This document shows, one piece after another, positions 16,788 to 62,198 of a stretch of 64,000 nucleotides of DNA. Position numbers and translations under genes: made by a program. Origin of the DNA: Candidatus Omnitrophota bacterium (lineage in GTDB: Bacteria; Omnitrophota; Gorgyraeia; Gygaellales; Profunditerraquicolaceae); assembly GCA_041662125.1 (NCBI GenBank), contig JBAZTA010000003.1, positions 264,962 through 328,961 of the forward strand, read 5' to 3'. Under the pieces are notes generated by a model. It was given only the letters and a program-made list of their open reading frames with translations. It had not been told where the DNA came from and ran no database searches. Numbering within the stretch: the stretch's first letter is position 1; each line of letters starts with the position of its first letter.

Positions 16788-16799
16788 GGCATCATATTT

Positions 16800-18559: not shown

Positions 18560-18568
18560 TTTATGGAC

Positions 18569-19342: not shown

Positions 19343-19345
19343 TAC

Positions 19346-20248: not shown

Positions 20249-20263
20249 AATAAAGAATAATGC

Positions 20264-21580: not shown

Positions 21581-21597
21581 AATTAACTCCGGGTATT

Positions 21598-22635: not shown

Positions 22636-22667
22636 ACCTCAAATTTTAAATTAAAATTATTAAATAC

Positions 22668-23825: not shown

Positions 23826-23826
23826 A

Positions 23827-26362: not shown

Positions 26363-26372
26363 AACACCTTTT

Positions 26373-32231: not shown

Positions 32232-32259
32232 AGGTATTTTATCGCAGCAAGACTGCGCT

Positions 32260-39506: not shown

Positions 39507-40756
39507 TTCTTATTCTCCTTATCTTTAAGATTCAGATATATTTCTTCAACATAACCGCTCCTGACCCATGAAGCATTTCTCCCAAGGCGTTTAAAACCCC
39601 CTACCTGAGCAACAACTTCAGGCACCCATACCTGCGGTTTTCCATGCACGATACTATAAGCTTCATGATTATAACTGAAAAATATGCCGCGCAGGCGCTT
39701 TTTCGCAAACGAGATATACGCGCTTACGATTTCTTCCGACATCTCCGGCATGCTGTTTTCATTCACCAACACATCGATATCCTGCTTTATTGCCGGCTCA
39801 AAAGCAACATTCGGCAGGATAGATATACAAGCGCTTGATTGGTCAATTTCTCCGTATAACTTCACCTGCCTTACGGTGAACGCCTGCGATAAAAAATATC
39901 CCTGCAACACGTTTATTAACGGCAAATCAATAATAGTATACGTTCTGATCTTAAGGTCCTTAAGTTTCAACAACCAATACGCTAATCCTCCAAAACCAGC
40001 GCCAATTTCCAGCAGATTGAGCTCATTGCCTGCTGTAACATTCAAATGATCCCGGGCAGCCTGACTGATACGCAGTGCGACATAAAGATGTTCAGGATGT
40101 TCCATAGTTATTAACGAACTATTCGCTTTAACGCCGTAGGGACTGCCTATATCAGGGAATCCTATTGAGATGCCCAAACAGGCTTCGATTTGAGAGACAA
40201 CTGCTGTAATCCCGTCCTTTAAACCATACGCTCTAAGCCCTTGTTGAGTAGATTCAGCGCGTACCAAACCCAAGTATTCCGCCAATGAAACCACATTGTC
40301 TTGATATTTCAATGACCAGATTTTACTTCCTATCCGGCTCTTGGAATGTTCCACTAAACTCCCCGAAGCTAAACCATACACAAAATCCTCCCGGAACATC
40401 CTGGATAAAAGCAAAGCTAATTCGTGCGCGTTTCCTCTCTCAACAACAGTCATAAGCTTCCCGGAATAACGCTTAAGGCCTTCTGACCAGATCAGGCTCG
40501 TATTGTTTTCTGGCGTTGATCTCTCAGCGGTAGCTTTACGATACGCGGCGATCAAACGTTCACATAAAACCACGTCTTCTTGAGATACCTCTTTAGCCTT
40601 ATTGTATATGATTTTCAACGTAGGGACCTTTTTTAAATTAAAAACCCAAAGATAGTGCTTCAAATATTTAAGCAGATCATAATTTATAAGCGAAACCCCC
40701 ATCGCCCGGGAGAGCCTGCTGTTGAGGATTTTTTTTATACTGTTCTTTAAAAACAT
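39503..40756 (-). CDS. Putative SAM-dependent (sugar O-)methyltransferase, large LIC12133-like type
   Basis: 417 aa. Motif I 'LLEIGAGFGGLAYWLL' in the C-terminal half. Long N-terminal domain of unknown function. Confidence 0.45.
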   Translation of the reverse strand: MFLKNSIKKILNSRLSRAMGVSLINYDLLKYLKHYLWVFNLKKVPTLKIIYNKAKEVSQEDVVLCERLIAAYRKATAERSTPENNTSLIWSEGLKRYSGKLMTVVERGNAHELALLLSRMFREDFVYGLASGSLVEHSKSRIGSKIWSLKYQDNVVSLAEYLGLVRAESTQQGLRAYGLKDGITAVVSQIEACLGISIGFPDIGSPYGVKANSSLITMEHPEHLYVALRISQAARDHLNVTAGNELNLLEIGAGFGGLAYWLLKLKDLKIRTYTIIDLPLINVLQGYFLSQAFTVRQVKLYGEIDQSSACISILPNVAFEPAIKQDIDVLVNENSMPEMSEEIVSAYISFAKKRLRGIFFSYNHEAYSIVHGKPQVWVPEVVAQVGGFKRLGRNASWVRSGYVEEIYLNLKDKENKK

Positions 40757-42615: not shown

Positions 42616-45270
42616 TCAATCGGCGTCATCGTTTAACAAAAAAGCATATTTTCTTAAAAAATCCCTGCCGATCCTTGATAGCGAACCATATGAATAATGC
42701 GTAGGATTCATCAACGCTTTAAAACGGCTCTGCAGCAGTTCATCTTCTTTTCCATAGGTAAGCAAACCGTCTTTTTTATCTAACATTTCCAAGGCCAATT
42801 CACGGATATCAGCCGGAGTATTTTCGTGAGGGCTGGCCCCGGCCCGGACAAATAAATGGTCAAACAAAAAATGGCCAAGGGGTGATTGAAGAACCTCTTT
42901 GAAACGTAAATAGCGTTTTTCTTTTTCTGACCATATAAGTTTCGGGATTCCGATATCATCGGCCCCGTACGGCAGGGATCCGCAGAGATGCGCGTAATTA
43001 GCGATTGCCGCAGAAACACCAAAAATACTGGCAACGTGGTATAAACCGGAATCACTTCCCAGAAAAAATTTACAACTGGCGCAAAGAAAAACATCAAGCT
43101 GTTGGCTTTTATTTTTTGAATGCGCATAATCGATAACATGTTCCTGGTAAGGCAGCGGCTTCATGGTCGCATCACCCATACGCACAACCCATCCTCCCCT
43201 CTTCACAATAGCCTCAACCGCTAAAAGATAATTATTGATATCGGCGTTACGCAGCGACTGGTTAACCTGGCCAAGATACCCATCTTCCCGGCAATGCAGG
43301 CAGACAAACCATGCACCCTGCGGCATACCTTGTTCCTCAAGAAAGGCCTGCCCGCGTTTACGGTCAGTTTCGCTTAATTTCAGAAGCGGCGGACGGCTAG
43401 CGAATTTCTTTTGAATTTCAGGAAAATACGCTGCCCCTTCAGAAAAAGCAAAACGATACGTTGCATACCCGGTCAGTTGATTACGGGCCAGCGGCTCCAA
43501 TAACGAACAAAGCCAGGCAGAACGAATAATGCGAAGATATTTTTCCCAATATCCTAAAAGATGAGCGTTAGAAACCTTACCAGGATGCGCAAGAAGGATC
43601 GTATTGTATTGAGGCCTCATACCCAGTATACCCTCTTTCAGATAACCATCGATCTCAATACAAAGATGCCCAATCGCCCGCTCAGACAAATAAATAAATC
43701 TTACATTAAACAGCCTGCAGATCGGATAGCAAACGATACCTGCAGCCTGACAAAATACTTTATAAATAATCTGCTGCGCGGCTTTTCCCACACAATATAA
43801 AATCCCTTTTTCTTTTAATCTACGGATAAAATATTCATTCCGCAGCGATAATTCCAGCTGTTCAAGGTTATCCTTATGCCACAACCTTCGGCAGCGCTGC
43901 CAGGTCAATACGACAAAAGGAAAAACAAGCAGATTAACTGCTAAAAAACTCCAGGACATCCCCTCTACCCCATAACGACGCCCTAAAACAACCGTGCAGA
44001 AACCGGTAACAATACCAAAAGTTAATGATATCCATAAAAGCGGTTCTCTCTTATGCGCTCTTAAATAGGCGGAAAGCGGCAAGGTCAATGTTGAGATACC
44101 TTGTGCAGCCAGAAAAACAGCTACAGGTAACGGAGATAAAATACGCGATGAGAATGGGTGGCCCGCCTGGTAAAGCATAAATACCAAGAACCACACCATT
44201 ACAGAAACACCCGCGGTTATAACCGTAAAGATCCTCGTTGTCCTCCAAAAAAGCTCATCAAGTTTTTTATAATCTTTTCGGGCGATCAAAATCCCGAATT
44301 GGGGGACCCGGGGAGATAACCACGCTGCCGCGATACCGGCAATAGCGCCGATAACACTCCAGGTCATGCCAAATTGTCCAGCAATAACCGGCCCGTGATA
44401 CCGAAAAAGTATTGGAGTAAAAAGAGAAAAAACAAAATATCCGCTGATCCAACTCAGCGCTATCCTCCATTGCATAGGAAGGATCTCTTTGCGCCAGTCA
44501 ATACGGCATGCGGATGGCTTGGTAAAAAGAAGTGTTTTAATAAATCCGCTGTATCGATATTTAAAGAATATAACGGAACATATAATAATTGAAGCGACAG
44601 AAAGCGAAGCTGCCCACAATCGCGCGCCGGCAAGTATAGCGATCCAAACAGTTAAACTTGAAACTATTCCCTGCAGGAACCGGTATGTGTAAACCGAGGC
44701 AACTTGATTACAGCCCTCCAAGATTGACCACAGAGGGATGAAACAAACAATAATGCCGGTAAGAAAACACAGCGTAAACCAAGGTAATGGCCAATCCACA
44801 CTGGAAATTGCTGAATGCGAGAAAAAAACATATCCTCCCAGGCCTAAACCAAAAGCAATGATACATCCGCCAACCAGATACCAGCGGCTCGTAATATGCG
44901 CTAAACTGATTAACCGTGATAAAGCAGCACTATCTCCCGTAATACCCCGGTCTTTATCTAAACGTAATTTCGACCACTCGTGACTGGCGAATTGGATAAT
45001 AACGGTCCCCAGCCCTAATTCCACAAAAATTTGCAACGCTAACAAACTGCTGAAAGTATAATAATATCCCTGGTATTCAGGAGAAAAGCGAAGCGTTATT
45101 AATAACGCCGTCAACGGACCGGCAATAATACTCCACCCTCTGCTTAAAATTCCAAAAAAAACAGGGCGGTCAACCTCAAACTTTGACAAAAGATTGATTA
45201 TCCGGTCTTTAAACAAAACTGCGATCGATTTCTTTTTATAGAGGGCCGATTCCATCAGTTTAGATTTCAT
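42616..45270 (-). CDS. Fusion protein: N-terminal Wzx/MOP-like polytopic membrane domain + C-terminal soluble transferase-like domain
   Basis: 884 aa. Residues about 1-480 contain at least 12 hydrophobic helices. Residues about 480-884 are hydrophilic with conserved Cys/His and no canonical motif ('...GAWFVCLHCREDGYLG...FLGSDSGLYHV...'). Confidence 0.5.
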   Translation of the reverse strand: MKSKLMESALYKKKSIAVLFKDRIINLLSKFEVDRPVFFGILSRGWSIIAGPLTALLITLRFSPEYQGYYYTFSSLLALQIFVELGLGTVIIQFASHEWSKLRLDKDRGITGDSAALSRLISLAHITSRWYLVGGCIIAFGLGLGGYVFFSHSAISSVDWPLPWFTLCFLTGIIVCFIPLWSILEGCNQVASVYTYRFLQGIVSSLTVWIAILAGARLWAASLSVASIIICSVIFFKYRYSGFIKTLLFTKPSACRIDWRKEILPMQWRIALSWISGYFVFSLFTPILFRYHGPVIAGQFGMTWSVIGAIAGIAAAWLSPRVPQFGILIARKDYKKLDELFWRTTRIFTVITAGVSVMVWFLVFMLYQAGHPFSSRILSPLPVAVFLAAQGISTLTLPLSAYLRAHKREPLLWISLTFGIVTGFCTVVLGRRYGVEGMSWSFLAVNLLVFPFVVLTWQRCRRLWHKDNLEQLELSLRNEYFIRRLKEKGILYCVGKAAQQIIYKVFCQAAGIVCYPICRLFNVRFIYLSERAIGHLCIEIDGYLKEGILGMRPQYNTILLAHPGKVSNAHLLGYWEKYLRIIRSAWLCSLLEPLARNQLTGYATYRFAFSEGAAYFPEIQKKFASRPPLLKLSETDRKRGQAFLEEQGMPQGAWFVCLHCREDGYLGQVNQSLRNADINNYLLAVEAIVKRGGWVVRMGDATMKPLPYQEHVIDYAHSKNKSQQLDVFLCASCKFFLGSDSGLYHVASIFGVSAAIANYAHLCGSLPYGADDIGIPKLIWSEKEKRYLRFKEVLQSPLGHFLFDHLFVRAGASPHENTPADIRELALEMLDKKDGLLTYGKEDELLQSRFKALMNPTHYSYGSLSRIGRDFLRKYAFLLNDDAD

Positions 45271-46303
45271 TCATTCTAACCAGTACGCGCCCGGCGGCTG
45301 TATGCTCCATGAATCTCAGAGCTTCATTAATATCTTCTAACTCGTAAACGCGGCAAATCAATTTCCCCAGGTTAAGTTTACCTGCAATGGCGAATTTTGC
45401 GAACTTCGGGATATCCCTGTCCGGCTGTGTTTCTCCTCCCCAGCTACCAATGATCCGTTTACCTTTAATAAAATCAAACGGGTCTATGTGGATCTTTTGG
45501 CCTTCACTGAGATTACCAGCAATAACACATAAGCCTCCCTTATCCTTCACTGATTTAAAAGCAAATTCCATCGATTCTTTTTTTCCCGCACATTCAAACG
45601 AAAAGTCAGCTCCGCGAGGCAAAATTAAGCCGAGAGCTGCCAAAACATCTTCTTTTTGAGCATGTATGGTATGCGTGGCGCCAAAAGATCTTGCCAAAGT
45701 AAGCCGCTCATCAGAAATATCAACTGCAATAATAATTTCAGCTTCATTCAAGCAGGCAGCCAGAAGGGCGCTTAAGCCGATCCCCCCCATCCCAAAAATA
45801 ACCACACTGCTTCCTTTTTTAACCTGAGCAGTATTTATTACAATGCCGGCGCCTGTAGGGATCGCACAACCCAACAATGCTGCTTGGTCAAGGGCCAGCT
45901 CATTTGGTATTTTGACTAAGCGGTTTTCAGAAACAACCGCTTTGGTCAAAAACGTAGAGATCGCGCCGGAATTGATCAGCCTTCCGTCAAGCGCCTTATA
46001 CGCAGCCGAGGGAATATCTAACCCATTGCCTTTGATCCAGGTCAAAACAACGCGGTCTTTCGGCTTAACCTTAGTTACGCCCTCTCCAATAGCTTCGACT
46101 ACCCCGGAACCTTCATGCCCCAAGGTATGCGGAAGAAACTTATCTTCTCCTTTTAAACCATGGATCTCATTTAACTGGGAATGACAGATCCCGCTGTAAG
46201 CGACATTGACAAGCACCTGGCCGTGTTTGAGAGGCGGAACATTAAGTTTTTCAAGAATCAAAGGCCTGTTTATTTGAGTTAATACTGCCGCGGTAGTTTC
46301 CAT
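45260..46303 (-). CDS. Zinc-dependent medium-chain alcohol/polyol dehydrogenase
   Basis: 'GICHSQLNEIHG' and 'GHEGSGVVEAIGEGV' Zn-ADH signatures. 'GMGGIGLSAL' Rossmann. Start trimmed to 'METTAAVL' with SD AGGAG. Confidence 0.7.
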   Translation of the reverse strand: METTAAVLTQINRPLILEKLNVPPLKHGQVLVNVAYSGICHSQLNEIHGLKGEDKFLPHTLGHEGSGVVEAIGEGVTKVKPKDRVVLTWIKGNGLDIPSAAYKALDGRLINSGAISTFLTKAVVSENRLVKIPNELALDQAALLGCAIPTGAGIVINTAQVKKGSSVVIFGMGGIGLSALLAACLNEAEIIIAVDISDERLTLARSFGATHTIHAQKEDVLAALGLILPRGADFSFECAGKKESMEFAFKSVKDKGGLCVIAGNLSEGQKIHIDPFDFIKGKRIIGSWGGETQPDRDIPKFAKFAIAGKLNLGKLICRVYELEDINEALRFMEHTAAGRVLVRMNEI

Positions 46304-46334
46304 AGAGTATTCTCCTGCATAAATTAGAGAGTGT

Positions 46335-47006
46335 TTAATCAGCAATAAACCACCAGTAATCACCGTTAAAACCTACTTCTGAAAACAGCTTTTTCCAATC
46401 ATCAACATGCATCATCGTCTCGGCAGTAAGCACCCATTTAAAAAGATTCTCACGTTCCAGGTCATTGCGCCAGGCATCAACAGTAATATAGCTGTGGCCG
46501 CGCGAAACCCGTTCTATTTCACGCAGAGAATTTTTAAGGCGTTCAAGCGGAAGGTTATGTATCGAATTTATGGAAATAACCAGGTCAAAACTTTTATCGG
46601 GAAAGGGCAGTATTTCAGCGCTTGCTATCTTAAGATATGGTTTAACATCTTCCAGGGCATTTTCAATCGCGTAGCGGCTGACATCGACACCGGCGATTGC
46701 AGCTTTCGGCAACGCTACTTTAAAATCATAAAGGAGGAAGCCTTTCGCGCATCCAATATCCAAGACCGCGGCATTATCGGGTAAATGATAATATTCTATC
46801 AAGCGTTTCACGACCAGTTTCCAACGTCCGTCATACTTGTAACCGCCGTACCCGCACTTTCTATCACCGTCAAAAAAATCTTTACCGAACTCTTTAGCGA
46901 GTTTAATAATATCCTTTGTTTTCTCTTGCGCGCGCCGATCATAATCTCGCGCGGTCTTTGGATGTGAATCTAATAAATTGATCTCTTTTCCCATATTCAG
47001 TATCAA
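46335..47006 (-). CDS. Class I SAM-dependent methyltransferase
   Basis: 223 aa. 'VLDIGCAKGFLLYDF'. Confidence 0.7.
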   Translation of the reverse strand: MILNMGKEINLLDSHPKTARDYDRRAQEKTKDIIKLAKEFGKDFFDGDRKCGYGGYKYDGRWKLVVKRLIEYYHLPDNAAVLDIGCAKGFLLYDFKVALPKAAIAGVDVSRYAIENALEDVKPYLKIASAEILPFPDKSFDLVISINSIHNLPLERLKNSLREIERVSRGHSYITVDAWRNDLERENLFKWVLTAETMMHVDDWKKLFSEVGFNGDYWWFIAD

Positions 47007-47027
47007 CGCCTCCCTATCGTTTATCCA

Positions 47028-48812
47028 TTATGTATTAACAGACGATTCGTGGGAGGCAACGATCATAGCTTCCCTGAACTCCCCACGATCCAAAAGCGGT
47101 TCAGAATCTTCTAACGCCCTGCCAAACTTCACTTGAGGCAATACCTTTTCATCAGTATGGATCTCAACATTACAAAAGGCCGGACAGTCTGTTTCAAGGG
47201 TATCGACTATTCCGGCGTTGAGATCCTTTTGAGCAGTGATCTGAGTTGTTTTATAACCATAAGCTTTCGCTACTTTAATAAAATCAGGAAATGCTAAGCC
47301 ACTTTCTACTGTAGAAGCAACATATCGGCTGGAAAACCATTGATCCTGCGTCTGTTTGATCATGCTGTACCCATGATTATTGATCAAGAATATCTTTATC
47401 GGTAGATCATGCCGTATAACAGTAGCAAGCTCCTGGATATTCATCTGTAAGCCCCCGTCACCGGTAACACATATTATACGTTTTTTCCCCAGTGCAAAAC
47501 AAGCCCCGATACTGGCCGGCAAAGCATACCCCATAGGAGTATTATTGAAAGCGCTGAAAAGCTTTTGTTTTTTCTTAAACTCAAAGCCTTGCGACATCCA
47601 CGCCACACTACAGCCGGTATCGAGAAATACAACATCACCTTCTTTAAGTTTTTCTGAGAGTCGTTTAACAAACACATAAGGATTAACTTTCTTTTCTTTC
47701 AACGCCTGCTGGCTGCACACCGGATATTTCTTCTTCCACAGGCCGATCTTTTTTACCCAGTCATGAATATCTTCCGGCACTGCCTGTTGAATTCTTTTAT
47801 GCATAGCCAAAAGGAATTCTTTGGCATCTTGATTGATCAAGAGTTCAACATCAAGGCCTAAAACTTTAAATTTCTTGAGTTCATGGATATCAACATCAAC
47901 AACGATCTTCTTGGCTTCCCGCGCGAATGTTGACAACGGAGAACCGGCTTCACGGGTATCCAGGCGTGCTCCGATAGAAAGGACCAGGTCAGCGTTTTGA
48001 ACAGCAAAGTTGCCATAGCGGCTCCCGTGTGTCCCAAAAGATCCGACTAAGAAAGGATGATGTTCAGGAAATAAATAACGCATAGCCCAGGTAGGAACAA
48101 CCGGGACCCTTACATCTTCGACAAAACGCAACGCTTCTTTTTCCGCGTTGGCAAGATAAACGCCCCACCCCAGAATTATAACAGGCCGTTCTGCTTTATG
48201 GAGCATACCGGCACAGGCATCGATCTGTTTTTGAAAAGCTGCAGTAGCAGTTCTTATTTTCGGAGGGATAAAAGATACTAAGCTATCCGGATCGATTTCC
48301 TGCCTTTGCAGGTTATCGGGAACATCGACCAAAACCGGCCCCGGCCTGCCGGACTTGGCAAGATATACGGCTTTTTCAAGTTCATAACGGATACGTTTAG
48401 CATCACGCACTTTAACCGCATATTTAGTGACCGGTTTAAAGATTTCAACCACATCAGTCTCCTGAAAGCCCAACTGCCGTATCCCTAAATTCCCTTTACA
48501 ACGAAAAGTCGCGACCTGGCCGGTTATAAAAAGCGTAGGAATAGAATCATAATACGAACAACAGACGCCCGTGAGCATATTCGTTGCTCCCGGCCCACTA
48601 GTCGAAATAGCGGCTCCCAAGTTCCCCGTAGCCCGGGAATATCCATCAGCAGCCATAGCGCACGCCTGTTCATGCTGCATGCATATATAGTCGATCCCTT
48701 TGGCCTTGGCAATTGAATCGATCAGATGAGCGGCAGCTCCGCCGGTTACGGCAAAAACATGCCTCATGCCCTGTTTCTTTAAAAAATATGCTATATAGTC
48801 AGACAGCTTCAT
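47028..48812 (-). CDS. Thiamin-diphosphate enzyme of the acetolactate-synthase-large-subunit family (YerE-like branched-sugar synthase candidate)
   Basis: 594 aa. N-terminal 'HVFAVTGGAAAHLIDSI...GPGATNMLTGV' Pyr domain. C-terminal ThDP motif 'GDGGLQMNIQELATV'. No ilvN/ilvC neighbours. Confidence 0.65.
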   Translation of the reverse strand: MKLSDYIAYFLKKQGMRHVFAVTGGAAAHLIDSIAKAKGIDYICMQHEQACAMAADGYSRATGNLGAAISTSGPGATNMLTGVCCSYYDSIPTLFITGQVATFRCKGNLGIRQLGFQETDVVEIFKPVTKYAVKVRDAKRIRYELEKAVYLAKSGRPGPVLVDVPDNLQRQEIDPDSLVSFIPPKIRTATAAFQKQIDACAGMLHKAERPVIILGWGVYLANAEKEALRFVEDVRVPVVPTWAMRYLFPEHHPFLVGSFGTHGSRYGNFAVQNADLVLSIGARLDTREAGSPLSTFAREAKKIVVDVDIHELKKFKVLGLDVELLINQDAKEFLLAMHKRIQQAVPEDIHDWVKKIGLWKKKYPVCSQQALKEKKVNPYVFVKRLSEKLKEGDVVFLDTGCSVAWMSQGFEFKKKQKLFSAFNNTPMGYALPASIGACFALGKKRIICVTGDGGLQMNIQELATVIRHDLPIKIFLINNHGYSMIKQTQDQWFSSRYVASTVESGLAFPDFIKVAKAYGYKTTQITAQKDLNAGIVDTLETDCPAFCNVEIHTDEKVLPQVKFGRALEDSEPLLDRGEFREAMIVASHESSVNT

Positions 48813-49510
48813 CGTTTAATTGCATTATTACGCATACCTGCTCCTAGCGCCCAAATATAATGACACATCGGGGCATAACCGGTATGCACAACTTCATCAT
48901 TCATGCCGAACATAAAAACATTTTTACAATATTTCTCAATAAGGTTCTTCAAAGCGCTCATACTTTTTAAATTTATATGTTGGACTTGGCTGCGGGGAGT
49001 TGCGTACGCAGAAGCAGTAATATTCGGTGTTCCCACGATCAATACGCCATCCGGATTCAAACATCGCACGAGGTTACGCATAAATGCTTTTTCTTTTCGA
49101 GGTTCAAGATGCTCGATCACATCGATCATAAATATGGCATCAACTTTTAAGCGTGGCGAATTTTTATTAAGATCCACGTGCACATACTCTACATTCTTTA
49201 AATGAGCGAGCCTCTGGCGATTGCCGTCTAAGAGGCGCATATCCCAATCAGCCGCGTAAACCTTTTTGACTGCCGCAGATATGATCGAGAGCCCAAAACC
49301 ATCTCCTGAGCCGATCTCCATGACCGTATCTTTACCTTCAAGCATCTTCGCGCAAAATTTATAGCGCGCAAGCACAAAACTCATATGTTTAGGGTCGTGC
49401 ACCAGGCTGTATGATGTCCAAGGCCCAAGCGTGATCTCAGGAGTGTTAAATTGATACTCAGTCCCTTCTGTATACGCCTGTTCTGCTGATTGTATTGATC
49501 TCTTCTTCAT
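48809..49510 (-). CDS. Class I SAM-dependent methyltransferase
   Basis: 233 aa. 'VMEIGSGDGFGLSIIS'. Confidence 0.7.
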   Translation of the reverse strand: MKKRSIQSAEQAYTEGTEYQFNTPEITLGPWTSYSLVHDPKHMSFVLARYKFCAKMLEGKDTVMEIGSGDGFGLSIISAAVKKVYAADWDMRLLDGNRQRLAHLKNVEYVHVDLNKNSPRLKVDAIFMIDVIEHLEPRKEKAFMRNLVRCLNPDGVLIVGTPNITASAYATPRSQVQHINLKSMSALKNLIEKYCKNVFMFGMNDEVVHTGYAPMCHYIWALGAGMRNNAIKR

Positions 49511-49540
49511 ATAAGCCCCTCTTTTGGTAAAGAAATACTC

Positions 49541-50359
49541 TTAAGAATTCTTAAACCGCCTTAACTTAAATTTATTTGGGTCACGCCGTAATTGTTGGAT
49601 CAACGTTTTCCCGCCATTCCTCCAGGCGTCATGCACTACAGAAATATTGCGCCCGCCCATCACAGCCCTGCCTTGTTTTATGCACCAATTAATACACTCG
49701 AAAATATCATCATGAGAAGTCCCCGGGTCAGCCGAACTTAAGAAGTTAATTGTCCGCCCGTAACTTTTACCTGCAGCCTTAGGGTTCTTTAACGTCTGAT
49801 TCAATATCTTAGTCCTGACCCATCCCGGGCCCACAATAAAAACATTTAAACCGGTGTTTTCGTCATCTAAAAGTTCACAGGCTTTCATTAAGAATATCTT
49901 GGAAGCGCAATAGGCGGAATAATGCGTCATCGCACTATTGGTGCCGCCTCCGGTGAAAAAAACAACATGAGCAGTTGCCCTTTTTTTACGGTACTGGTAG
50001 ATACTGTGCAAAAAACGCAGCTGTCCCAGGCAATTGACAGTAACTGATTTCTCCCAGGCATCAAAATCAGTTTTAAAGAAATCGCCAACCGGCTCAAGCG
50101 TGCCGGCACATGATATAAAAATATCCCACCCCTTTTGTAAACGCCCATAAGCGGCAGCGGCCATTTTTATATCCGCCTGAGAAGATATGTCGCATCGAAA
50201 AAGTTTTAAGTTTTTGCCCATGGACAAATCTGCGACAGAAGATTTCCTGCGGTATGTGCCAGCGACATAAAAATTCTCATGCGCCAGATAGCGCTTCGCT
50301 AATTCTTTGCCGATATCGCTTCCAACGCCAAGAATGAAAATATTTTTTTTCTCCATCAA
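49541..50359 (-). CDS. Short-chain dehydrogenase/reductase (classical SDR)
   Basis: 272 aa. 'IFILGVGSDIGKELAKRY' TGxxxGxG-like. 'YCASK' YxxxK. Confidence 0.65.
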   Translation of the reverse strand: MMEKKNIFILGVGSDIGKELAKRYLAHENFYVAGTYRRKSSVADLSMGKNLKLFRCDISSQADIKMAAAAYGRLQKGWDIFISCAGTLEPVGDFFKTDFDAWEKSVTVNCLGQLRFLHSIYQYRKKRATAHVVFFTGGGTNSAMTHYSAYCASKIFLMKACELLDDENTGLNVFIVGPGWVRTKILNQTLKNPKAAGKSYGRTINFLSSADPGTSHDDIFECINWCIKQGRAVMGGRNISVVHDAWRNGGKTLIQQLRRDPNKFKLRRFKNS

Positions 50360-50380
50360 AAACGGTTTTTAGTTTAACTG

Positions 50381-51379
50381 CTATGGTTTATGGATATACT
50401 CTAACGGCTCTTTTATAATATCATTCCAGCTGCCCGTTACCCAATTTACGACTTCTTCGAGGCCATCGTTTAAGGCGATAGTTGGCCTCCAGCCAAGCTC
50501 TTTCCTGGCCTTACTCGAATCAATAACATAGGCGGCATCCTGGCCAAGGCGCTCCTCAACAGATTTTGCCGCTTTTTCAAACGGAACCTTTAATTTTTCA
50601 CACATAGTCTTAACCACATCGCTAACCGCCACCCCTTCATCAGGTGAAAGATGATAGATTTCGCCGGTTTTTCCTTTTTCCATAGCCAAAAGCTCTCCGC
50701 GCGATATATCGCGGATATGGATATATGATTTAACGGCTTTACCGCCGCCATGCAATTCTATCAGCCTGCCTGATTTTATATAAATAGCGGAACGCGGGAT
50801 AATTTTAAATAACTGCTGATGCGCCCCGTAAACGTTGGTGGACCGGATCATGACCAGTGGAAACTTAAAATTCTTTACAAAAGTAAATAATGAAAGGTCA
50901 CCCGCTGCTTTTGAGGCGGCATATGGGGTACTCGGGTTAAGGGGTGCATCTTCCTTAATTGTCCCGCTGCAGGTCCCGTAAACTTCCGGAGAAGAGATAT
51001 GGACATACTTCTTAAGGAAGGAACAGTTTTTAAGGAAATCAGCCAACTCAGTGATAGCAACAGCATTGGTTTGAAACCATTGACCTGGATTTTTCCAGCT
51101 GGGAGCAACTTCACTTTGAGCTGCGAAATTAACCACATACTCAGGCTCAAAATCCGCTAGAGTCTTACGCACGCCGGCCATATCTTTATTGAGATCAAGC
51201 TGCATAAATCTAAAGTCAGGCTGCGCATGCCTTTTATACGCCAGGAACAACGCGCTTTTCTCAGGGGAACGGCTGATACCGACGACCGAATATTGTTTTT
51301 TTTCCAATAACAAGTCGACAAAATCGCTTCCTGAGAATGAATTACTGCCTATCACGACTACTTTAACTTTATTCGCCAT
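50381..51379 (-). CDS. NDP-sugar 4,6-dehydratase-like extended SDR (RmlB/GMD family)
   Basis: 332 aa. 'VVVIGSNSFSGSDFVDLLL'. 'ISSPEVYG'. 'YAASKAAGDL'. 'STNVYGAHQ' parallels the RmlB 'SNNYGPYQ'. Confidence 0.6.
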   Translation of the reverse strand: MANKVKVVVIGSNSFSGSDFVDLLLEKKQYSVVGISRSPEKSALFLAYKRHAQPDFRFMQLDLNKDMAGVRKTLADFEPEYVVNFAAQSEVAPSWKNPGQWFQTNAVAITELADFLKNCSFLKKYVHISSPEVYGTCSGTIKEDAPLNPSTPYAASKAAGDLSLFTFVKNFKFPLVMIRSTNVYGAHQQLFKIIPRSAIYIKSGRLIELHGGGKAVKSYIHIRDISRGELLAMEKGKTGEIYHLSPDEGVAVSDVVKTMCEKLKVPFEKAAKSVEERLGQDAAYVIDSSKARKELGWRPTIALNDGLEEVVNWVTGSWNDIIKEPLEYIHKP

Positions 51380-51390
51380 GCTCTCTCCTC

Positions 51391-52455
51391 TTAAAAAGGG
51401 CCGGTAAAATTCTTATCCGGCACATCAAGGGGCGTTTCAGGATCAATACCCAGCGCTGATTCTGTCAGTTGAGACTTATTCAAAAGGCAGCGCACTTCAT
51501 TAACGATATCGATGGTCCGCGGATAATAATGGTTAGCCAATGCCCAGCTCGTTGGCGTAGGCACGTCAGGAAAAGCCAGGCGGCGCGGCGCTGCCTTAAG
51601 AGCAGCAAAACTCTTTTCTGACGCCAAAGCAATAATCTCAGCAGAAACGCCAAAACTTTTCCATGCCCCATCTACGACCAATAACCGTCCGGTCTTCTCC
51701 AGAGAGGCCGCTATCGCCTCTTCGTCAAGCGGCTTTATGGTCCGCAGATCAACTATTTCGATATCAATGCCATCTTCAGAGAGTAAACGAGCGGCTTTCA
51801 TCACTTCTAACGTCGTGTAGGATGAAGTCACCACCGTCACATCGCGGCCTATCTTCATAATACGCGCTTTTCCGATAGGAACCGTAAACATCTCTTTCGG
51901 GACATCGCCGAATGTTCCATGGAGCCAACGATGTTCAATATAGATTACCGGATTATCATCCTGGATAGCTGATATTAACAATCCTTTAGCATCCGAAGGA
52001 GTCGTGGGCATAACTACTTTAAGCCCGGGGATGTGCGCAAAAAGCGCTTGCAAGCTTTGAGAATGCTGCGGCCCCTGGCCCCATCCTCTGCCGACAAGCA
52101 GGCGTATCACTAAAGGCACGCTCATTTTTGAACCAAACATGTAATGCCATTTCGCGGCATTATTGATTATCTGGTCCAAAGATAAAAGCATAAAATCGAT
52201 CCGCTGGTGCGTCATGATCGGACGCATACCAACCAACGCAGAACCGATAGCTATACCAGTCATTGCGTTTTCTGCTACCGGCATATCTAAGACGCGCACT
52301 CGGCCAAACTTTTCCTGCAGGCCTAAGGTCGTCCCAAAAACACCTTTAGGGTCGGGAACACCTAATCCAATAATATAAACAGACGCATCAGACTCCATAC
52401 ATTGCGTAGTTGCTTCAAGCACTGCATTCGCGTATGTTATTTCTCTCGCCATCAA
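51391..52455 (-). CDS. Thiamin-diphosphate-dependent E1 beta-subunit-like protein (second copy)
   Basis: 354 aa. 'VYIIGLGVPDPKGVFGTTLGLQEKFG..RVLDMPVAENAMTGIAIG' is a typical E1-beta N-terminus. Confidence 0.7.
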   Translation of the reverse strand: MMAREITYANAVLEATTQCMESDASVYIIGLGVPDPKGVFGTTLGLQEKFGRVRVLDMPVAENAMTGIAIGSALVGMRPIMTHQRIDFMLLSLDQIINNAAKWHYMFGSKMSVPLVIRLLVGRGWGQGPQHSQSLQALFAHIPGLKVVMPTTPSDAKGLLISAIQDDNPVIYIEHRWLHGTFGDVPKEMFTVPIGKARIMKIGRDVTVVTSSYTTLEVMKAARLLSEDGIDIEIVDLRTIKPLDEEAIAASLEKTGRLLVVDGAWKSFGVSAEIIALASEKSFAALKAAPRRLAFPDVPTPTSWALANHYYPRTIDIVNEVRCLLNKSQLTESALGIDPETPLDVPDKNFTGPF

Positions 52456-52470
52456 ATATATTCCTCTTGG

Positions 52471-53436
52471 TTACGCATAAACACCGGTAAAAGCTTCACC
52501 CGGCTTCGGGAACGGGCTTTTTTGGGCAAAGCTAACGGCTTCATTGATCTCTAATTGGATACCAGTTTTATATTCATTAATGATCTTAGCAGTGATACTC
52601 CCCTTATGAAGCAACTTTCTCTGGTAGGTTTCCAGCGGACAACGCTTACACCAGCGGGAAAATTCAATTTCTGTCCGATAACCCAGTTCATTATCAAAGT
52701 TTGGGCCACAATGTTCCCTGAAACGATAGGTATCAAACTGCAAATAATACGGGCCCCTGAGGCTACGCGCGTACATAACAGCTTTTTTTGCAGCTTTAAA
52801 AACATATTCGACATCATTGCCGTCACCTTCTTCACCCTCAACACCAAAACCACGCGCAATCGAAAGATTATTACGTTTTTTAGGCTGACGCACGGAAAGC
52901 GGAGAATATACCGAAAAATAGTTATTTTCACAGACAAAGATCACAGGAAGTTTCTTAAGCGCGGCAAAATTCAAGCTTTCCGCGAACACCCCTTCTTCAG
53001 TAGCAGCATCGCCGAAAAATGCAACGCTGATAGAATGCTCTTTTTTCATCTGTATCCCAAAAGCGACACCCGCGGCAACAGGAATAATACCTGCGACAAT
53101 AGGAGTAGACCCCAGTATTCCGGCATCAAGATCAACCAAATGCATGGAACCGCCCTTGCCGCCTGAACACCCATTCTCTTTACCGTAAATCTCAGAGAAC
53201 ATAGCCTTAAGGCTTCCTCCCTTAGCAAGGTAATGGCCATGAGAACGATGATTGCTTAACACATAATCTTTTTTCAACAGATTCGCGCAGAGGCCAGCGG
53301 CAACTGCTTCCTGGCCGATACACAGATGCACCGGGCAGCGCATCTGCCACTGAGTATACACTCTGGCAATTGCCTCTTCAACCATGCGGATACGCAGCAT
53401 TTGGTAATACAAAGAAAGGGCGCTATCTTTTCTCAT
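52471..53436 (-). CDS. Thiamin-diphosphate-dependent E1 alpha-subunit-like protein (second copy)
   Basis: 321 aa. 'GQEAVAAGL'. ThDP motif 'FFGDAATEEGVFAESLN...CENNYFS'. Confidence 0.7.
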   Translation of the reverse strand: MRKDSALSLYYQMLRIRMVEEAIARVYTQWQMRCPVHLCIGQEAVAAGLCANLLKKDYVLSNHRSHGHYLAKGGSLKAMFSEIYGKENGCSGGKGGSMHLVDLDAGILGSTPIVAGIIPVAAGVAFGIQMKKEHSISVAFFGDAATEEGVFAESLNFAALKKLPVIFVCENNYFSVYSPLSVRQPKKRNNLSIARGFGVEGEEGDGNDVEYVFKAAKKAVMYARSLRGPYYLQFDTYRFREHCGPNFDNELGYRTEIEFSRWCKRCPLETYQRKLLHKGSITAKIINEYKTGIQLEINEAVSFAQKSPFPKPGEAFTGVYA

Positions 53437-53446
53437 GAGTGATTAA

Positions 53447-54454
53447 TTATTTTAGTTTTATTGCCTGCATCGTCTTGATATTATAGTATCGCTTATCAAC
53501 GAGGGGATTCGGTATTTTTCCTGCCTTAAAGGCACTGCAGAGATCTTCTACTGCTTCCTGGACTGATCTTTTAGCAACAAACCCAAGCTCTTTTTTTATC
53601 TTTTCAGAGGATACATGGTAGGAACGGTTATCGTCGCTCGGGGTGACCTCGATCTTTAAATCTTTTTTCCCAAGCGTTTTTGATACTACCCGATAGACGA
53701 CATCGGCGATCTCTTTCATCTTCATATTATGGTATCCGGCATTAAATATCTTTCCGTTAATCTGCTCGTCACTATACTCAAGAGTTAAAACATAGAGGTC
53801 AGTCATATCTTCAATATGAATATTAGGCCGCTTCTGTTCTCCTCCATAAACCGGAATATTGCCAAGATTTACTGCTTTATTGGTAAGGATATTGACAGAC
53901 AGGTCAAGGCGCAGCCGCGGCGAATATCCGCAGACCGTTGCCGGGCGCAGGATCAATACCACAAAACCTTTTGTTCGCTCTTTTAAAAGGTAATCTTCAC
54001 AGAGAGCTTTATATTTCGAATAATCAGTCAAAGGCTGGAGCGGCAAGTCCTCAGTGACATTATCTTCTTCTTTGATCCCGTAAACGCTGGAACTTGAAGC
54101 ATAAATAAATCGTTTGACCCCTGCTTTTTTAGAAAGATCCACAAGCGTAACAAAAGCGTCATAATTGATCGATTTGCCGAGCGCCGGGTCTAATTCATAA
54201 CTGGGGTCATTGGAAATACAGGCAAGATGGATCACCGCGTCAATATTTACGAGTTCCCGCTTTAATAGATCTTTATCCCGGATATCTCCTTTAACCTGTT
54301 TGAGCTGCGGATGTCCCTTTACCGAGTCCAAAACATCATCCCCGTAAATATACAGGTCAAGGACACTGACGGAATATCCTTTTTTAAGCAGTTTCGGCAC
54401 TAATACGGCACCCACATAACCGGCTCCTCCGGTAACTAAAATATTCTTAAGCAT
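53447..54454 (-). CDS. NAD-dependent epimerase/dehydratase-family protein
   Basis: 335 aa. 'ILVTGGAGYVGAVLVPKLL'. 'YSKYKALCE'. Paralog of 37170..38222. Confidence 0.7.
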   Translation of the reverse strand: MLKNILVTGGAGYVGAVLVPKLLKKGYSVSVLDLYIYGDDVLDSVKGHPQLKQVKGDIRDKDLLKRELVNIDAVIHLACISNDPSYELDPALGKSINYDAFVTLVDLSKKAGVKRFIYASSSSVYGIKEEDNVTEDLPLQPLTDYSKYKALCEDYLLKERTKGFVVLILRPATVCGYSPRLRLDLSVNILTNKAVNLGNIPVYGGEQKRPNIHIEDMTDLYVLTLEYSDEQINGKIFNAGYHNMKMKEIADVVYRVVSKTLGKKDLKIEVTPSDDNRSYHVSSEKIKKELGFVAKRSVQEAVEDLCSAFKAGKIPNPLVDKRYYNIKTMQAIKLK

Positions 54455-54460: not shown

Positions 54461-55039
54461 TTACTCCTTCTTAGTATCGGCAATACTATCCAGCACATAA
54501 TGTAATAGAGAATGATGCATGATCTCTACATGGCTATATGCCTTTGCAGGCACATAAAAATTCAGGTCACCTGATGCGCGCAGCGGGTTCTCAGGAAGGA
54601 ATCCCGAAAAACTCACTACCAAGACTCCTTTCCTTCTGGCCGCTCTCACCGCAGCTAAAATATTGGGAGATTTCCCTGAGCTGCTGATCGCAACCAGGAT
54701 ATCGCCCTTATCCGCGAAAAGCTCAAGCGGTTTTTCAAACACATGGTCATAACCAAAATCGTTTGAGATACAGGTCAAAAGCGACGAATCATTAAAAGCT
54801 ATACCGCGGATACCCGCGTGCTTGGAAAAATCAACCGCCATGTGGCTGGAAATAGCCGCGCTGGCTCCGTTACCGATAAAGATAAGTTTTTTATTCCTGA
54901 GAGCGCAAGCCATAAACAAATCGGCAATTTTCTCAAAGCCTTTTTGCGTAGTAATTACCTTGCCGGTTTTATCCGTAATTATAATATTGTGCGTCAGCCC
55001 CCGTAAAACTTCATAGTAAGACTCGATTTTCTTATGCAT
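54461..55039 (-). CDS. gmhA: Sedoheptulose-7-phosphate isomerase (SIS domain, GmhA)
   Basis: 192 aa. 'LIFIGNGASAAISSHMAVDF' SIS phosphosugar-binding motif. 'SSSGKSPN'. Confidence 0.8.
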   Translation of the reverse strand: MHKKIESYYEVLRGLTHNIIITDKTGKVITTQKGFEKIADLFMACALRNKKLIFIGNGASAAISSHMAVDFSKHAGIRGIAFNDSSLLTCISNDFGYDHVFEKPLELFADKGDILVAISSSGKSPNILAAVRAARRKGVLVVSFSGFLPENPLRASGDLNFYVPAKAYSHVEIMHHSLLHYVLDSIADTKKE

Positions 55040-55044
55040 ATGAT

Positions 55045-56571
55045 TTATTTTAGTATAGTGGTAATAAATTTCTTAAGATCGATCGGGTCAACCGGGTCAC
55101 GGTTACAAATGATCTGCACCGCCAGCGCCCCGACCGCGTTCCCGATAAAAACGACTAAATCCTGAGGCACCCCCAATGCTACTAACGGCGCGGTAAAAGC
55201 AAAAAAAGCATCTCCCGCTCCGATCGGATCAACGACACTGGTAGCCAAAGCAGGAGCATTTAAAAACTCCTTTTTGTTATTAATGCTCAAAGCCCCAAAA
55301 CTTCCTCTGGTAATGATCAAATTATCACAATGGATCTTACGGGAGACCTTTTTCATGATTCCACCCAGCTCACCAGCCTTATCGTGGGCAGCATAGCGGA
55401 TCTCCAGTTCATCCAATGCCGCGTAATCAACATTAGAATAGCGGGTAATAAAATTAAAGCCCATATTCGCGCCGTTAGTCTGAGTATTCACCGCCAGAAA
55501 CTTTGCCTTTTTGCAGATGGACCGCGCCAGGTTATCAGACAAGAAGCCGTGCCCGAAATCAGAAACAACGACTAAATCATAATCCGAGACCATATGTTTT
55601 AATTTCGCCTGTATCTTCTTTTCCACGTCGTTGGGAAGCGGGGAATCATTCAAATAGCATATTTCAAAAAGTTTTTGGTTAGCGTTCACGAAACGGCGTT
55701 TTACGATCGTCTTACTATCAGGCCTTTCGAAATTAACCAGTTTAACGTTGGCCTTCATTTTCTCGCTCAAAAACCCGGCAAACGCTTTATTGTCGTTGCC
55801 TGAGAGCGTAACCAGCGTCACATCTTTTGCCAATCCCGCGATATGATTGGAAACAGCAAGAGATCCTCCGGCGAACGATTCTTCAGAGGCATACTTATAA
55901 ACAACGACATTGCTCTTGCGCGACTTATCAAGAGCTTCACAATAATGGTATTGATCAATAATAGCTTCCCCGATGACCAGGACTTTGAGTTTCTTGATCT
56001 TTTCCAGCGTTTCAAATATATAATCAAGTGGATACTGAGCTGCTATCCCTTTTAAATAAGCCCTGGTTTCTTCAGGAAAAACCTGCATATGCTCATTGAT
56101 CAATTTTGAAGAGCTAAAGGTTATATCATGGGTAAAAGCGATCCTGCCTCCGACAGAAACAATCGCTTCCTCTTCTTCTGAGATCTTGCCGGTAACATCT
56201 TTGCTCTTATTAACATAATCCTGGCCTTTCACATAGACATGGGGTTTAAGCATTTTTATGCATTCTGTGGCTGTGGGAGCAGGATTAATAGCGACATAAT
56301 CAACCGTACTAAACGCTGCCAAGGTCTCAGCGCGCAGGTTCTCATTAAAGATAGGCCTTCCCGGGCCTTTTCTGACAAACGGGTCAGAGGTTACGGTAAC
56401 GATCAAAACATCGCCTTCTTTTTTCGCGGAAGCAAGGTGACGGATATGGCCCGGATGGATCAGGTCAAAAACACCGTGGCAATGGACAACCGTCTTATTT
56501 TGTTTCTTTAAACCGGCGATAATGGTTTTGAGTTCCTGCAATTTCTTGATCTTCTTGTATATCTTTTCCAT
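55045..56571 (-). CDS. Bifunctional heptose-1-phosphate nucleotidyltransferase / heptose-7-phosphate kinase (HldE-like, inverted domain order)
   Basis: 508 aa. N-terminal cytidylyltransferase-like 'HCHGVFDLIHPGHIRHL' (RfaE domain-II type). C-terminal PfkB carbohydrate-kinase motif 'DPIGAGDAFFA'. Confidence 0.7.
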   Translation of the reverse strand: MEKIYKKIKKLQELKTIIAGLKKQNKTVVHCHGVFDLIHPGHIRHLASAKKEGDVLIVTVTSDPFVRKGPGRPIFNENLRAETLAAFSTVDYVAINPAPTATECIKMLKPHVYVKGQDYVNKSKDVTGKISEEEEAIVSVGGRIAFTHDITFSSSKLINEHMQVFPEETRAYLKGIAAQYPLDYIFETLEKIKKLKVLVIGEAIIDQYHYCEALDKSRKSNVVVYKYASEESFAGGSLAVSNHIAGLAKDVTLVTLSGNDNKAFAGFLSEKMKANVKLVNFERPDSKTIVKRRFVNANQKLFEICYLNDSPLPNDVEKKIQAKLKHMVSDYDLVVVSDFGHGFLSDNLARSICKKAKFLAVNTQTNGANMGFNFITRYSNVDYAALDELEIRYAAHDKAGELGGIMKKVSRKIHCDNLIITRGSFGALSINNKKEFLNAPALATSVVDPIGAGDAFFAFTAPLVALGVPQDLVVFIGNAVGALAVQIICNRDPVDPIDLKKFITTILK

Positions 56572-56575
56572 AACC

Positions 56576-58821: not shown

Positions 58822-58836
58822 TATATAAAGTAGGAT

Positions 58837-62193: not shown

Positions 62194-62198
62194 AAGTT

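Follow-up and report, generated by a model that had tools for sequence, protein, structure and literature searches.

Introduction

Thiamine diphosphate (ThDP)-dependent carboligases that build branches onto sugars are already known from two settings. In lipopolysaccharide (LPS) biosynthesis, YerE-like enzymes transfer acyl groups from α-keto acids onto cytidine diphosphate (CDP)-4-keto-sugars, the product then being reduced with NAD(P)H and in some cases methylated (PMC9306805). In actinomycete antibiotic sugars, the E1α/E1β enzymes of the αKADH2 type carry out pyruvate-derived acylation at C3 or C4 (PMC12247030; PMC4753412), and a 2025 review places these enzymes 'mainly' in specialised natural products. 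A further point of comparison is the GDP-heptose pathway of Campylobacter jejuni (GmhA, HddA, GmhB, HddC, Cj1427/MlghA and DdahA), in which Cj1427 oxidises GDP-heptose at C4 (PMC10680097). Here we examine a 64-kb stretch of a Candidatus Omnitrophota metagenome-assembled genome (MAG; GenBank assembly GCA_041662125.1, contig JBAZTA010000003.1), hereafter the window, which is a glycan cluster, and within it a cassette that encodes both a YerE-like protein of 594 residues and an E1α/E1β pair (pair 2).

The cassette has a conserved gene content, includes a ThDP protein of YerE-like affiliation and an E1 pair devoid of E2 and E3, and is tightly linked to heptose-type activation genes. We think it fairly probable, if by no means assured, that positions 45260-54454, with their flanks 54461-59610 (upstream) and 42616-45270 (downstream), represent one copy of a widespread cassette whose product is an unusual sugar nucleotide, C-branched and destined for a glycan of the cell surface. 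Its enzymes would most likely C-acylate keto-sugar nucleotides in ThDP-dependent reactions, with ketoreduction and methylation as later steps. Throughout, we refer to the two extended short-chain dehydrogenases/reductases (SDRs) of the cassette as EPI and DH46, to its classical SDR as SDRc, and to its two methyltransferases as MT1 and MT2 (Table 1).

Affiliation of the 594-residue ThDP protein

A preliminary description of this stretch had read the 594-residue protein as a relative of YerE within the acetolactate synthase (ALS) family, and this reading stands. The protein scores 116.6, 110.6 and 139.1 bits against the Pfam domains TPP_enzyme_N, TPP_enzyme_M and TPP_enzyme_C, and reaches 451.9 bits with TIGR00118, under the equivalog cut-off of 538.35; the PRK models for ALS all fall far below their own cut-offs. 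Its best PDB match is 8RPH (1e-107, 364 bits), a code that occurs in a paper on JanthE and which we take to be the JanthE structure, followed by 5AHK (4e-92, 313 bits), presumably PpYerE, and then by acetohydroxyacid synthase (AHAS; 290 bits), whilst the catabolic ALS 1OZF matches at only 4e-39. In a neighbour-joining tree of ThDP enzymes (Kimura distances and 200 bootstraps, not maximum likelihood; three PDB sequences were transcribed from HMMER alignments and may contain a few typos), the window protein, its own family, JanthE (8RPH), PpYerE (5AHK) and several RfbF-linked homologues form one clade with 99.5% bootstrap support, and the AHAS clade, containing four Omnitrophota genes, stands apart from it.

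The genomic setting leads in the same direction. The AHAS outgroup and control loci were drawn from genome contigs by a scan with two patterns common to all AHAS ([SA]TSGPGATN and AMAAD[AG]Y[AS]R); among the matches listed, four were relatives at 47-53% identity and the remainder true IlvB. In both positive controls, an Omnitrophota AHAS belonging to the AHAS clade (L042) and one from Bacillus (L046), ilvN (ACT_AHAS_ss plus ALS_ss_C) and then ilvC (KARI) lie next door. Across the entire window, by contrast, minus-strand open reading frames (ORFs) of at least 120 residues (at least 100 above position 30000) yielded no ilvN, ilvC, E2, E3 or lipoyl protein, and no ThDP enzymes beyond three systems, i.e. 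the YerE-like protein and two E1 pairs. The preliminary description had set tight clustering with IlvB/IlvG, with ilvN nearby, against its own proposal; we found neither, since the protein falls within the YerE/JanthE clade and lacks both ilvN and ilvC, while the genuine Omnitrophota AHAS has both adjacent. Placement in the YerE-like lineage rather than with IlvB/IlvG is thereby supported by tree, scores and context, a reading that holds at the level of the family.

Likeness to the described YerE-like lyases (YpYerE, PpYerE, ErwE, MMAR_2332, MyGE and JanthE) extends from domain layout to individual residues. Both the ThDP motif GDG-X(24-27)-NN and the catalytic Glu (E48, in 'HEQ') are invariant across the YerE-like family, and a loop of the window protein, GQVATFRCKGNLGIRQLGFQE, is common to PpYerE (GQVNTHELKGKRDIRQQGFQE) and JanthE, giving the shared insertion GQVxTxxxKGxxxIRQxGFQE; the AHAS counterpart is shorter, GQVPRRMIGTDAFQE. 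The C-terminal tail aligns with that of JanthE. The envelope-glycan cluster with its oxidoreductase and methyltransferases is also what the 'unifying scheme' for these enzymes describes (PMC9306805). The window enzyme differs from PpYerE and JanthE in being only 33-35% identical to them and in forming a tight family of its own, and from the described YerE-like lyases in being uniquely co-conserved with an E1α/E1β pair and heptose-type activation genes. With AHAS (IlvB/IlvG/IlvI plus IlvN) it shares the superfamily, the domain order and about 32-34% identity, and annotation pipelines name it ALS; it differs in its score below TIGR00118, its position outside the clade, the missing small subunit and ilvC, and its active-site loop.

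The preliminary description had proposed a search for an FAD-binding domain. A central TPP_enzyme_M domain is indeed present, with R-x-D-x-R (R-L-D-T-R) and G-x-H-G (G-T-H-G) motifs like the FAD-site motifs of AHAS and PpYerE, and the enzyme is probably FAD-containing. Yet these motifs cannot tell YerE from AHAS, because YpYerE reportedly carries FAD and JanthE binds it as well. For JanthE, the cofactor has been documented (PMC12188165).

The best 120 database hits to the 594-residue protein are 60-100% identical to it and about 593 residues long, and those with a named source come from MAGs of Omnitrophota, Nitrospirota and Deltaproteobacteria. One Deltaproteobacteria MAG (L001, positions 10001-21788) holds three YerE-like paralogues of 595, 606 and more than 877 residues in a single cluster, all inside the YerE/JanthE clade and accompanied by a TAL_FSA aldolase, a radical S-adenosylmethionine (SAM) enzyme, a DJ-1 protein and a HAD hydrolase. 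By analogy with ErwE, the aldolase in L001 points to keto acids with long chains as donors; the window has no aldolase that would supply such a donor.

Two unrelated E1-type modules

E1α of pair 2 (E1α2), predicted to be the subunit that binds ThDP, scores 288.9 bits with TIGR03182, below the cut-off of 393.85, keeps the GDA...ENN ThDP motif and also gives weak Pfam matches to DXP_synthase_N. Its orthologues, at 60-84% identity, were retrieved by database search from many phyla, and several database sources call its relatives 'acetoin dehydrogenase'. E1β of the same pair (E1β2) keeps the catalytic Glu and ends in a tail, ...PLDVPDKNFTGPF (window 51391-51480), of a type conserved in L001, L003, L005 and L087 as 25-30 residues finishing in PLDVPDxxF(T/K/Q)GP(F/Y); in the alignment, human PDHB and the L088 orthologue show no such extension. 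This tail could replace the contact with E2, or reach the active site.

From these features pair 2 is predicted to be a heteromeric αKADH2-type enzyme, like the E1 of pyruvate dehydrogenase (PDH) and without E2 or E3. The arrangement of its genes recalls AviB1/B2, Pau11/12, the aldgarose enzymes and KbDH-α/β: adjacent E1α and E1β with no E2/E3, a ThDP motif, neighbouring SDRs of the nucleoside diphosphate (NDP)-sugar type that could supply a keto-sugar, and a candidate ketoreductase downstream. It differs from these in lying within envelope-glycan clusters of uncultured Gram-negative-type and candidate phyla radiation (CPR) lineages rather than in secondary-metabolite clusters, and in its association with heptose-type instead of dTDP-hexose activation.

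A first E1 module lies elsewhere in the window, and pair 2 does follow its gene order, SDR-E1α-E1β-SDR in both, as the preliminary description had noted. The further suggestion of ancient duplication and sub-functionalisation did not survive closer comparison. E1α2 is 31% identical to human PDHA1 and 26% to E1α of pair 1 (E1α1); E1β2 is 39% identical to human PDHB and 20% to E1β1; and the SDRs beside one module share only about 25% identity with those beside the other. The families to which the two pairs belong are separate and widespread, and each has conserved neighbours that are not orthologous to those of the other. Local duplication of an E1 module is rejected on pair identities below those to human PDH E1 and on the separate family contexts. 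From the low identities and separate contexts it follows that the shared order reflects a common logic assembled from non-orthologous parts, not a duplicated block, this logic being a keto-sugar-forming SDR beside a carboligase, and the window thus holds a second, unrelated E1-type cassette.

Pair 1 has its own peculiarities. E1α1 matches Pfam E1_dh at 105.7 bits, and E1β1 is strongly diverged, with no Pfam match at 1e-5 and only PRK09212 (9e-10) and 1UM9_B (1e-13) as relatives. The E1α1 family, of about 308 residues and 52-77% identity, occurs in Omnitrophota, Nitrospirae, Chloroflexota, CPR and Asgard archaeal MAGs. There, E1α and E1β come after an HddC-GmhB-like fusion and/or an HddA-like GHMP kinase, a TylC3-like C-methyltransferase, an RmlC-like protein, a CmcI-type methyltransferase and an SDR of ~290 residues, 56-60% identical to that at 30214-31110. 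In this family (window 28342-29280 and 29277-30206; L089-L091), QSSL or QAAL replaces the QHSQ of PDH-type E1β, and a family-specific insertion in E1α, GDWRMKTDEYPEGKYINYHAG, stands in place of the YRxxxH loop, losses that would fit an E1 no longer serving a lipoyl-E2.

Conservation of the cassette

The gene set of the cassette recurs in all six (6/6) of the other long contigs that we compared, each bearing a YerE-like gene 62-79% identical to that of the window: an NTP transferase, a CTP_transf_like-PfkB fusion, a SIS protein, extended SDRs, E1α, E1β, an adh_short SDR, a methyltransferase of ~233 residues, the YerE-like gene, a methyltransferase of ~220 residues and a zinc-dependent alcohol dehydrogenase (Zn-ADH), often followed by a flippase-like/TIGR04372 protein of ~860 residues. 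A family-specific motif, M-I-[KQ]-Q-T-Q-D-Q-W, retrieved 120 metagenome loci from lakes, sediments and seawater, most commonly in the order DH46-EPI-E1α-E1β-SDRc-YerE-like(-MT1-ADH). Where at least 3.5 kb lay upstream of the YerE-like gene (n=27), orthologues of E1 pair 2 were present in 23/27 loci and a classical SDR in 25/27, but an RfbF-type gene fell within the flank in only 2/27; among the 61 metagenome loci with at least 1 kb of upstream flank, 53 had the classical SDR ahead of the YerE-like gene. One compact arrangement, L005, combines both ThDP enzymes with a single activation set and no DH46.

Seen from the E1 pair, the picture is that of a core with a variable partner. The HldE-like fusion and the SIS gene are found in every long context of pair 2, and the three E1α2 contexts examined all contain HldE-like, SIS, EPI, E1α, E1β, DH46 and adh_short genes, of which only one (L213) has a YerE-like gene. 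In L212 there is none within 9 kb, and a split transketolase lies downstream (14156-15858); L214 has none in the flank, and a Transketolase_N gene begins at the very end of the locus (18863-end), where only this first gene is visible. L003 has a YerE-like gene plus a split transketolase (17935-19680). These transketolases consist of a Transketolase_N protein of about 260-270 residues and a Transket_pyr/C protein of about 310. The E1α2 contexts therefore define a stable core made up of the heptose-type activation set, EPI, the E1 pair, DH46 and the SDR. Because a split transketolase occupies the place of the YerE-like gene in L212 and L214, they also suggest that the second ThDP enzyme is an exchangeable add-on, in other words a modular second C-C bond-forming step.

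The preliminary description had envisaged three independent ThDP-dependent branch-forming systems. Three ThDP systems there are; their independence is what gives way, as pair 2 and the YerE-like gene are co-inherited in one cassette across phyla, and the two enzymes form part of one glycan programme, possibly even of a single pathway. A literature search on E1α/E1β pairs in O-antigen and LPS clusters, and on AviB1/B2, found no description of such a cassette. Many relatives add a B12-radical SAM enzyme between E1β/DH46 and the classical SDR, as well as a NUDIX hydrolase after MT1, and the window cassette is without both.

Heptose-type activation and accessory enzymes

Upstream of EPI lie two genes that support a heptose route, as judged from their best matches. 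The best NCBIfam matches of the GmhA-like SIS protein are all to phosphoheptose isomerase (91.8 bits, cut-off 209). The HldE-like fusion, about 508 residues long across cassettes and usually beside a separate NTP transferase, scores 187 bits against an HldE cut-off of 521, and 108 and 130 bits with rfaE domains II and I, both below cut-off; its domain order is reversed, with the cytidylyltransferase-like domain N-terminal and the PfkB kinase C-terminal. The likeness to the C. jejuni pathway thus comprises a GmhA-like isomerase, a sugar kinase and one or more nucleotidyltransferases, along with a shared logic in which a 4-keto-heptose nucleotide would be the hub intermediate. The differences are the reversed fusion, the scores below cut-offs, and the proposed fate of the 4-keto intermediate, which would be C-acylated here rather than epimerised and reduced.

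EPI is likely to be the NDP-heptose C4-dehydrogenase that produces the ketone acceptor. Its best PDB matches over the full length are 6VO6 and 6VO8 (E 1.2e-42, the next match being 2e-25), which we take to be C. jejuni Cj1427; its motif reads S-S-S-S-V-Y-G, without Glu, and the gene is conserved adjoining E1α at 41-80% identity. For DH46, the best NCBIfam match is TIGR01181, for which its score lies under the cut-off of 365, and the best PDB match is the dTDP-glucose 4,6-dehydratase 6BI4 (1e-42). It is not a canonical 4,6-dehydratase, and a role in forming or modifying a keto-sugar is uncertain.

The remaining enzymes would act on the branches. SDRc is a candidate side-chain ketoreductase analogous to YerF, and Zn-ADH, whose cassette orthologues are 37-67% identical, is a candidate for the second. 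MT2 orthologues (54-72% identical) lie immediately upstream of the YerE-like gene, MT1 orthologues (44-79%) downstream of it. The 884-residue fusion combines an O-unit-flippase-like membrane N-terminus (a weak match) with a TIGR04372 glycosyltransferase domain and has no Pfam match; counterparts of 861-862 residues stand directly downstream of the ADH gene in related cassettes, and it is likely the transferase for the cassette product.

A proposed pathway and its alternatives

How might these enzymes work together? The GmhA-like protein would isomerise a ketose phosphate, most likely sedoheptulose 7-phosphate, and the HldE-like fusion and/or the separate NTP transferase would phosphorylate it at C1 and nucleotidylate it to give an NDP-heptose, which the Cj1427-like EPI would oxidise at C4 to an NDP-4-keto-heptose. 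The E1α/E1β heteromer would then decarboxylate pyruvate on ThDP and add the C2 unit to the C4 ketone, leaving a tertiary alcohol with an acetyl branch, a step that we have modelled on AviB1/B2, Pau11/12 and KbDH of the actinomycete antibiotics. DH46, the RmlB-like SDR, would create or expose a further carbonyl, onto which the YerE-like enzyme would add a second acyl unit from an α-keto acid. SDRc and Zn-ADH would reduce the side-chain ketones, the two small methyltransferases would methylate, and the 884-residue protein would transfer the finished sugar. These parts come in matching numbers, with keto-forming SDRs, carboligases, non-sugar-type reductases and methyltransferases present twice each.

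The point of which we are least sure is whether one and the same sugar molecule is the substrate of both ThDP enzymes. Our fuller proposal, that the two carboligases work successively on a single heptose nucleotide (E1 first, the YerE-like enzyme or a split transketolase second) in uncultured Omnitrophota, Nitrospirota, Desulfobacterota/Syntrophales, Schekmanbacteria and others, the second C-C step being swappable and the product a higher-carbon sugar, either C-branched twice or extended in its chain, of a type for which no glycan has so far given an example, is put forward as a tentative possibility, which we would ourselves call doubtful.

Several observations weigh against the C-acylation of a heptose nucleotide and deserve to be set out together. 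E1β2 passes the PDH-β subfamily model, if marginally (321.3 bits against a cut-off of 321), and pair 2 keeps both the QHSQ His of the β subunit and the YRxxxH histidine of the α subunit, the two residues that the E1 components of PDH and of branched-chain α-keto acid dehydrogenase use with lipoamide; with these histidines retained and that model passed, a dehydrogenase or redox reaction stays compatible with what sequence alone can tell. The aspartate of the T-D-E triad is catalytic in RmlB. In DH46 it is gone, the triad reading S-P-E in the window and (S/T)-P-E in 26/28 orthologues, so that a 4,6-dehydratase call is insecure. The heptose assignment leans on matches of hidden Markov models that are all under curated cut-offs, even if the best matches are all heptose enzymes, and on the presumed identity of 6VO6 with Cj1427. 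There is no GmhB phosphatase in the cassette, a GmhB-like domain being found only in module 1 (33249-34469), and the cassette has two nucleotidyltransferase functions, a number that a single-sugar model does not need.

This last point leads to the alternative closest to the 'independent systems' of the preliminary description, namely two parallel, co-inherited sub-pathways feeding the same glycan: a C-branched heptose nucleotide made by the SIS protein, the HldE-like fusion, EPI and the E1 pair, and a yersiniose-like C-branched CDP-6-deoxyhexose made by RfbF, DH46, the YerE-like enzyme, SDRc, the methyltransferases and the ADH. We consider this somewhat unlikely. The bona fide RfbF beside the cassette in Omnitrophota versions favours two sugars: it clears its model comfortably in the window (427 bits, cut-off 300), its orthologues in L003 and L087, 74-78% identical, adjoin the HldE-like gene or the SIS gene, and its presence besides the HldE-like fusion would explain the two nucleotidyltransferases. 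The gene order can be divided into EPI-E1α-E1β and DH46-SDRc-MT2-YerE-like-MT1-ADH, and pair-2 cores exist without a YerE-like gene within the examined flank (L212, L214). Characterised YerE-type enzymes, moreover, act on CDP-hexoses (PMC9306805). A single sugar is favoured, on the other hand, because RfbF is rarely in the flank (2/27 loci, against 23/27 for E1) and because L005 makes do with one activation set, keeping both ThDP enzymes although it has no RmlB-like SDR; E1β, the classical SDR and the YerE-like gene are also adjacent in most loci. Neither the cassette nor the window contains DdhC/DdhD-like CDP-sugar 3-dehydrase genes, and the CDP_4_6_dhtase model gives only 89.6 bits against a cut-off of 278. 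A yersiniose-type substrate, the model that the preliminary description had in mind, is therefore unlikely, both for want of DdhC/D and because of the insecure 4,6-dehydratase call, T-P-E standing where T-D-E is expected; this failed supply test lowers the case for 'makes yersiniose', not that for 'works like YerE'.

The other explanations keep sugar branching out of one or both ThDP reactions. One of the two enzymes might leave the sugar alone and produce either the donor or a substituent that is not a sugar; the YerE-like enzyme, the SDR and the ADH, for instance, could yield a unit of the acetolactate, acetoin or butanediol type, which would serve as acyl donor for the E1 pair, itself related to acetoin-cleaving E1, or be attached as a decoration. 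An ALS-like protein, a classical SDR, a Zn-ADH and an E1α/E1β pair do together resemble acetoin/butanediol metabolism, as do the 'acetoin dehydrogenase' names among E1α2 relatives, and an αKADH2 member, Ao:DCPIP oxidoreductase, uses acetoin-type donors (PMC12247030); even so, we find this improbable, as the protein belongs to the ketone-accepting YerE/JanthE clade rather than with the catabolic ALS 1OZF, no acetolactate decarboxylase is present, and the surroundings are NDP-sugar SDRs and a glycosyltransferase. It is more improbable still that the E1 pair acts before nucleotide activation, in the manner of DXS or a transketolase, joining a C2 unit to an aldose phosphate to provide a ketose phosphate for the SIS isomerase and the kinase. 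The weak DXP_synthase_N matches, the split transketolases of related cassettes and the constant linkage of SIS and kinase genes to the E1 pair would all suit such chemistry, whereas a nucleotide-sugar-type SDR always directly precedes E1α, a GmhA-type enzyme could not isomerise a pyruvate-derived 1-deoxy-ketose, and there is no precedent for E1α/E1β in such a reaction. Ordinary central metabolism, in which the E1 of a pyruvate or acetoin dehydrogenase and an ALS for branched-chain amino acids had by chance come to lie in a glycan cluster, we regard as hardly credible. The marginal PDH-β score, the retained catalytic histidines and the best NCBIfam names of the 594-residue protein (acetolactate synthase) are what it can draw on; housekeeping PDH and AHAS are nonetheless rejected on context and phylogeny, given the lack of E2, E3, lipoyl protein, ilvN and ilvC among the ORFs scanned, the ALS-like protein's failure to reach the equivalog cut-off or to fall within the AHAS clade, the ilvN/ilvC neighbours of genuine Omnitrophota AHAS, and the synteny of both ThDP genes with sugar genes across phyla.

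Implications

Returning to the C-branched sugar nucleotide that we favour, what is new is that both kinds of carboligase are co-conserved in one cassette, and that both are tied to heptose-type activation, not to the classical CDP- or dTDP-6-deoxyhexose routes. New, too, is the occurrence of E1-type carboligases in the envelope-glycan clusters of many uncultured phyla, as two separate E1 families each with its own neighbourhood. If our reading is right, a family of C-branched higher sugars would decorate the surfaces of abundant environmental bacteria, and ketone-accepting ThDP biocatalysts for tertiary alcohols would be gained for a toolbox that the 2025 review calls incomplete. The annotations 'acetolactate synthase' and 'pyruvate/acetoin dehydrogenase E1' would be corrected as well; left as they are, they would mislead metabolic reconstructions of these MAGs.

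Gene inventory and other features of the window

The window forms a single array of minus-strand genes, its GC skew being negative throughout, and nearly all of its ORFs are sugar-nucleotide, methyltransferase, radical-SAM or glycosyltransferase genes. All nine genes that the preliminary description had placed between 45260 and 54454 were recovered at their coordinates and on the minus strand, and the gap between E1β and the ALS-like gene, earlier put at ~2.5 kb, measures 2.58 kb; the GmhA-like gene lies outside that interval and is part of the cassette. MT2 and the YerE-like gene share 4 bp, the stop codon of the former running into the start of the latter. Because of the lengths of their orthologues, four genes probably begin later than their mechanical ORF starts: the ADH at M21 (46303), MT1 at M5 (46994), and both E1β and the classical SDR at M2.

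Table 1. Genes of the cassette and of the first E1 module in the window.
Feature	Length (residues)	Position	Strand	Assignment and matches
Glucose-1-phosphate cytidylyltransferase, RfbF type		58837-59610	minus	TIGR02623 427 bits, cut-off 300
HldE-like fusion		55045-56571	minus	CTP_transf_like residues 32-157, PfkB 196-486
GmhA-like SIS isomerase		54461-55039	minus	SIS_2
EPI, extended SDR	335	53447-54454	minus	Epimerase/GDP_Man_Dehyd; Pfam Epimerase 138 bits
E1α of pair 2	321	52471-53436	minus	PF00676 215 bits
E1β of pair 2	353-354	51391-52455	minus	Transket_pyr + Transketolase_C
DH46, RmlB-like extended SDR	332	50381-51379	minus	TIGR01181 203 bits
SDRc, classical SDR	about 271	49541-50359	minus	adh_short 72 bits
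MT2, class I SAM methyltransferase	233	48809-49510	minus	Methyltransf_12/23/25/11
YerE-like ThDP protein	594	47028-48812	minus	TPP_enzyme_N/M/C
MT1, class I SAM methyltransferase	probably 219	46335-47006	minus	Methyltransf_11/25
Zn-ADH	probably 347	45260-46363	minus	ADH_N + ADH_zinc_N
Flippase-like/TIGR04372 glycosyltransferase fusion	884	42616-45270	minus	TIGR04372 203 bits, cut-off 45
First module, SDR		30214-31110	minus	
First module, E1α1		29277-30206	minus	
First module, E1β1		28342-29280	minus	
First module, SDR		27400-28329	minus	

Beyond the two E1 modules, the window contains a nonulosonic-acid-type sub-cluster (14313-24828) with a PseB-like Polysacc_synt_2 dehydratase, a DegT aminotransferase, NeuB, two formyltransferase-like proteins, a class-III aminotransferase, an aldo-keto reductase, a CMP-type cytidylyltransferase, WbqC and a PIG-L deacetylase. 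A carbamoyltransferase (Carbam_trans_N/C, 621 residues) followed by a small SxtJ-like protein occupies 59982-62229, and the same pair stands beside the cassette in L088 (12957-15171). At 2776-4275, 9349-10737 and 12283-14300 the cluster encodes two radical SAM enzymes of the B12-binding kind, together with two radical-SAM/SPASM proteins in tandem. Finally, ORFs of 350-510 residues at 39503-40756, 24917-26455, 8182-9318 and 17516-18559 have no Pfam or NCBIfam match, and that at 31140-32309 has only a faint match to Glyco_trans_1_4; these ORFs may encode novel glycosyltransferases or polymerases.

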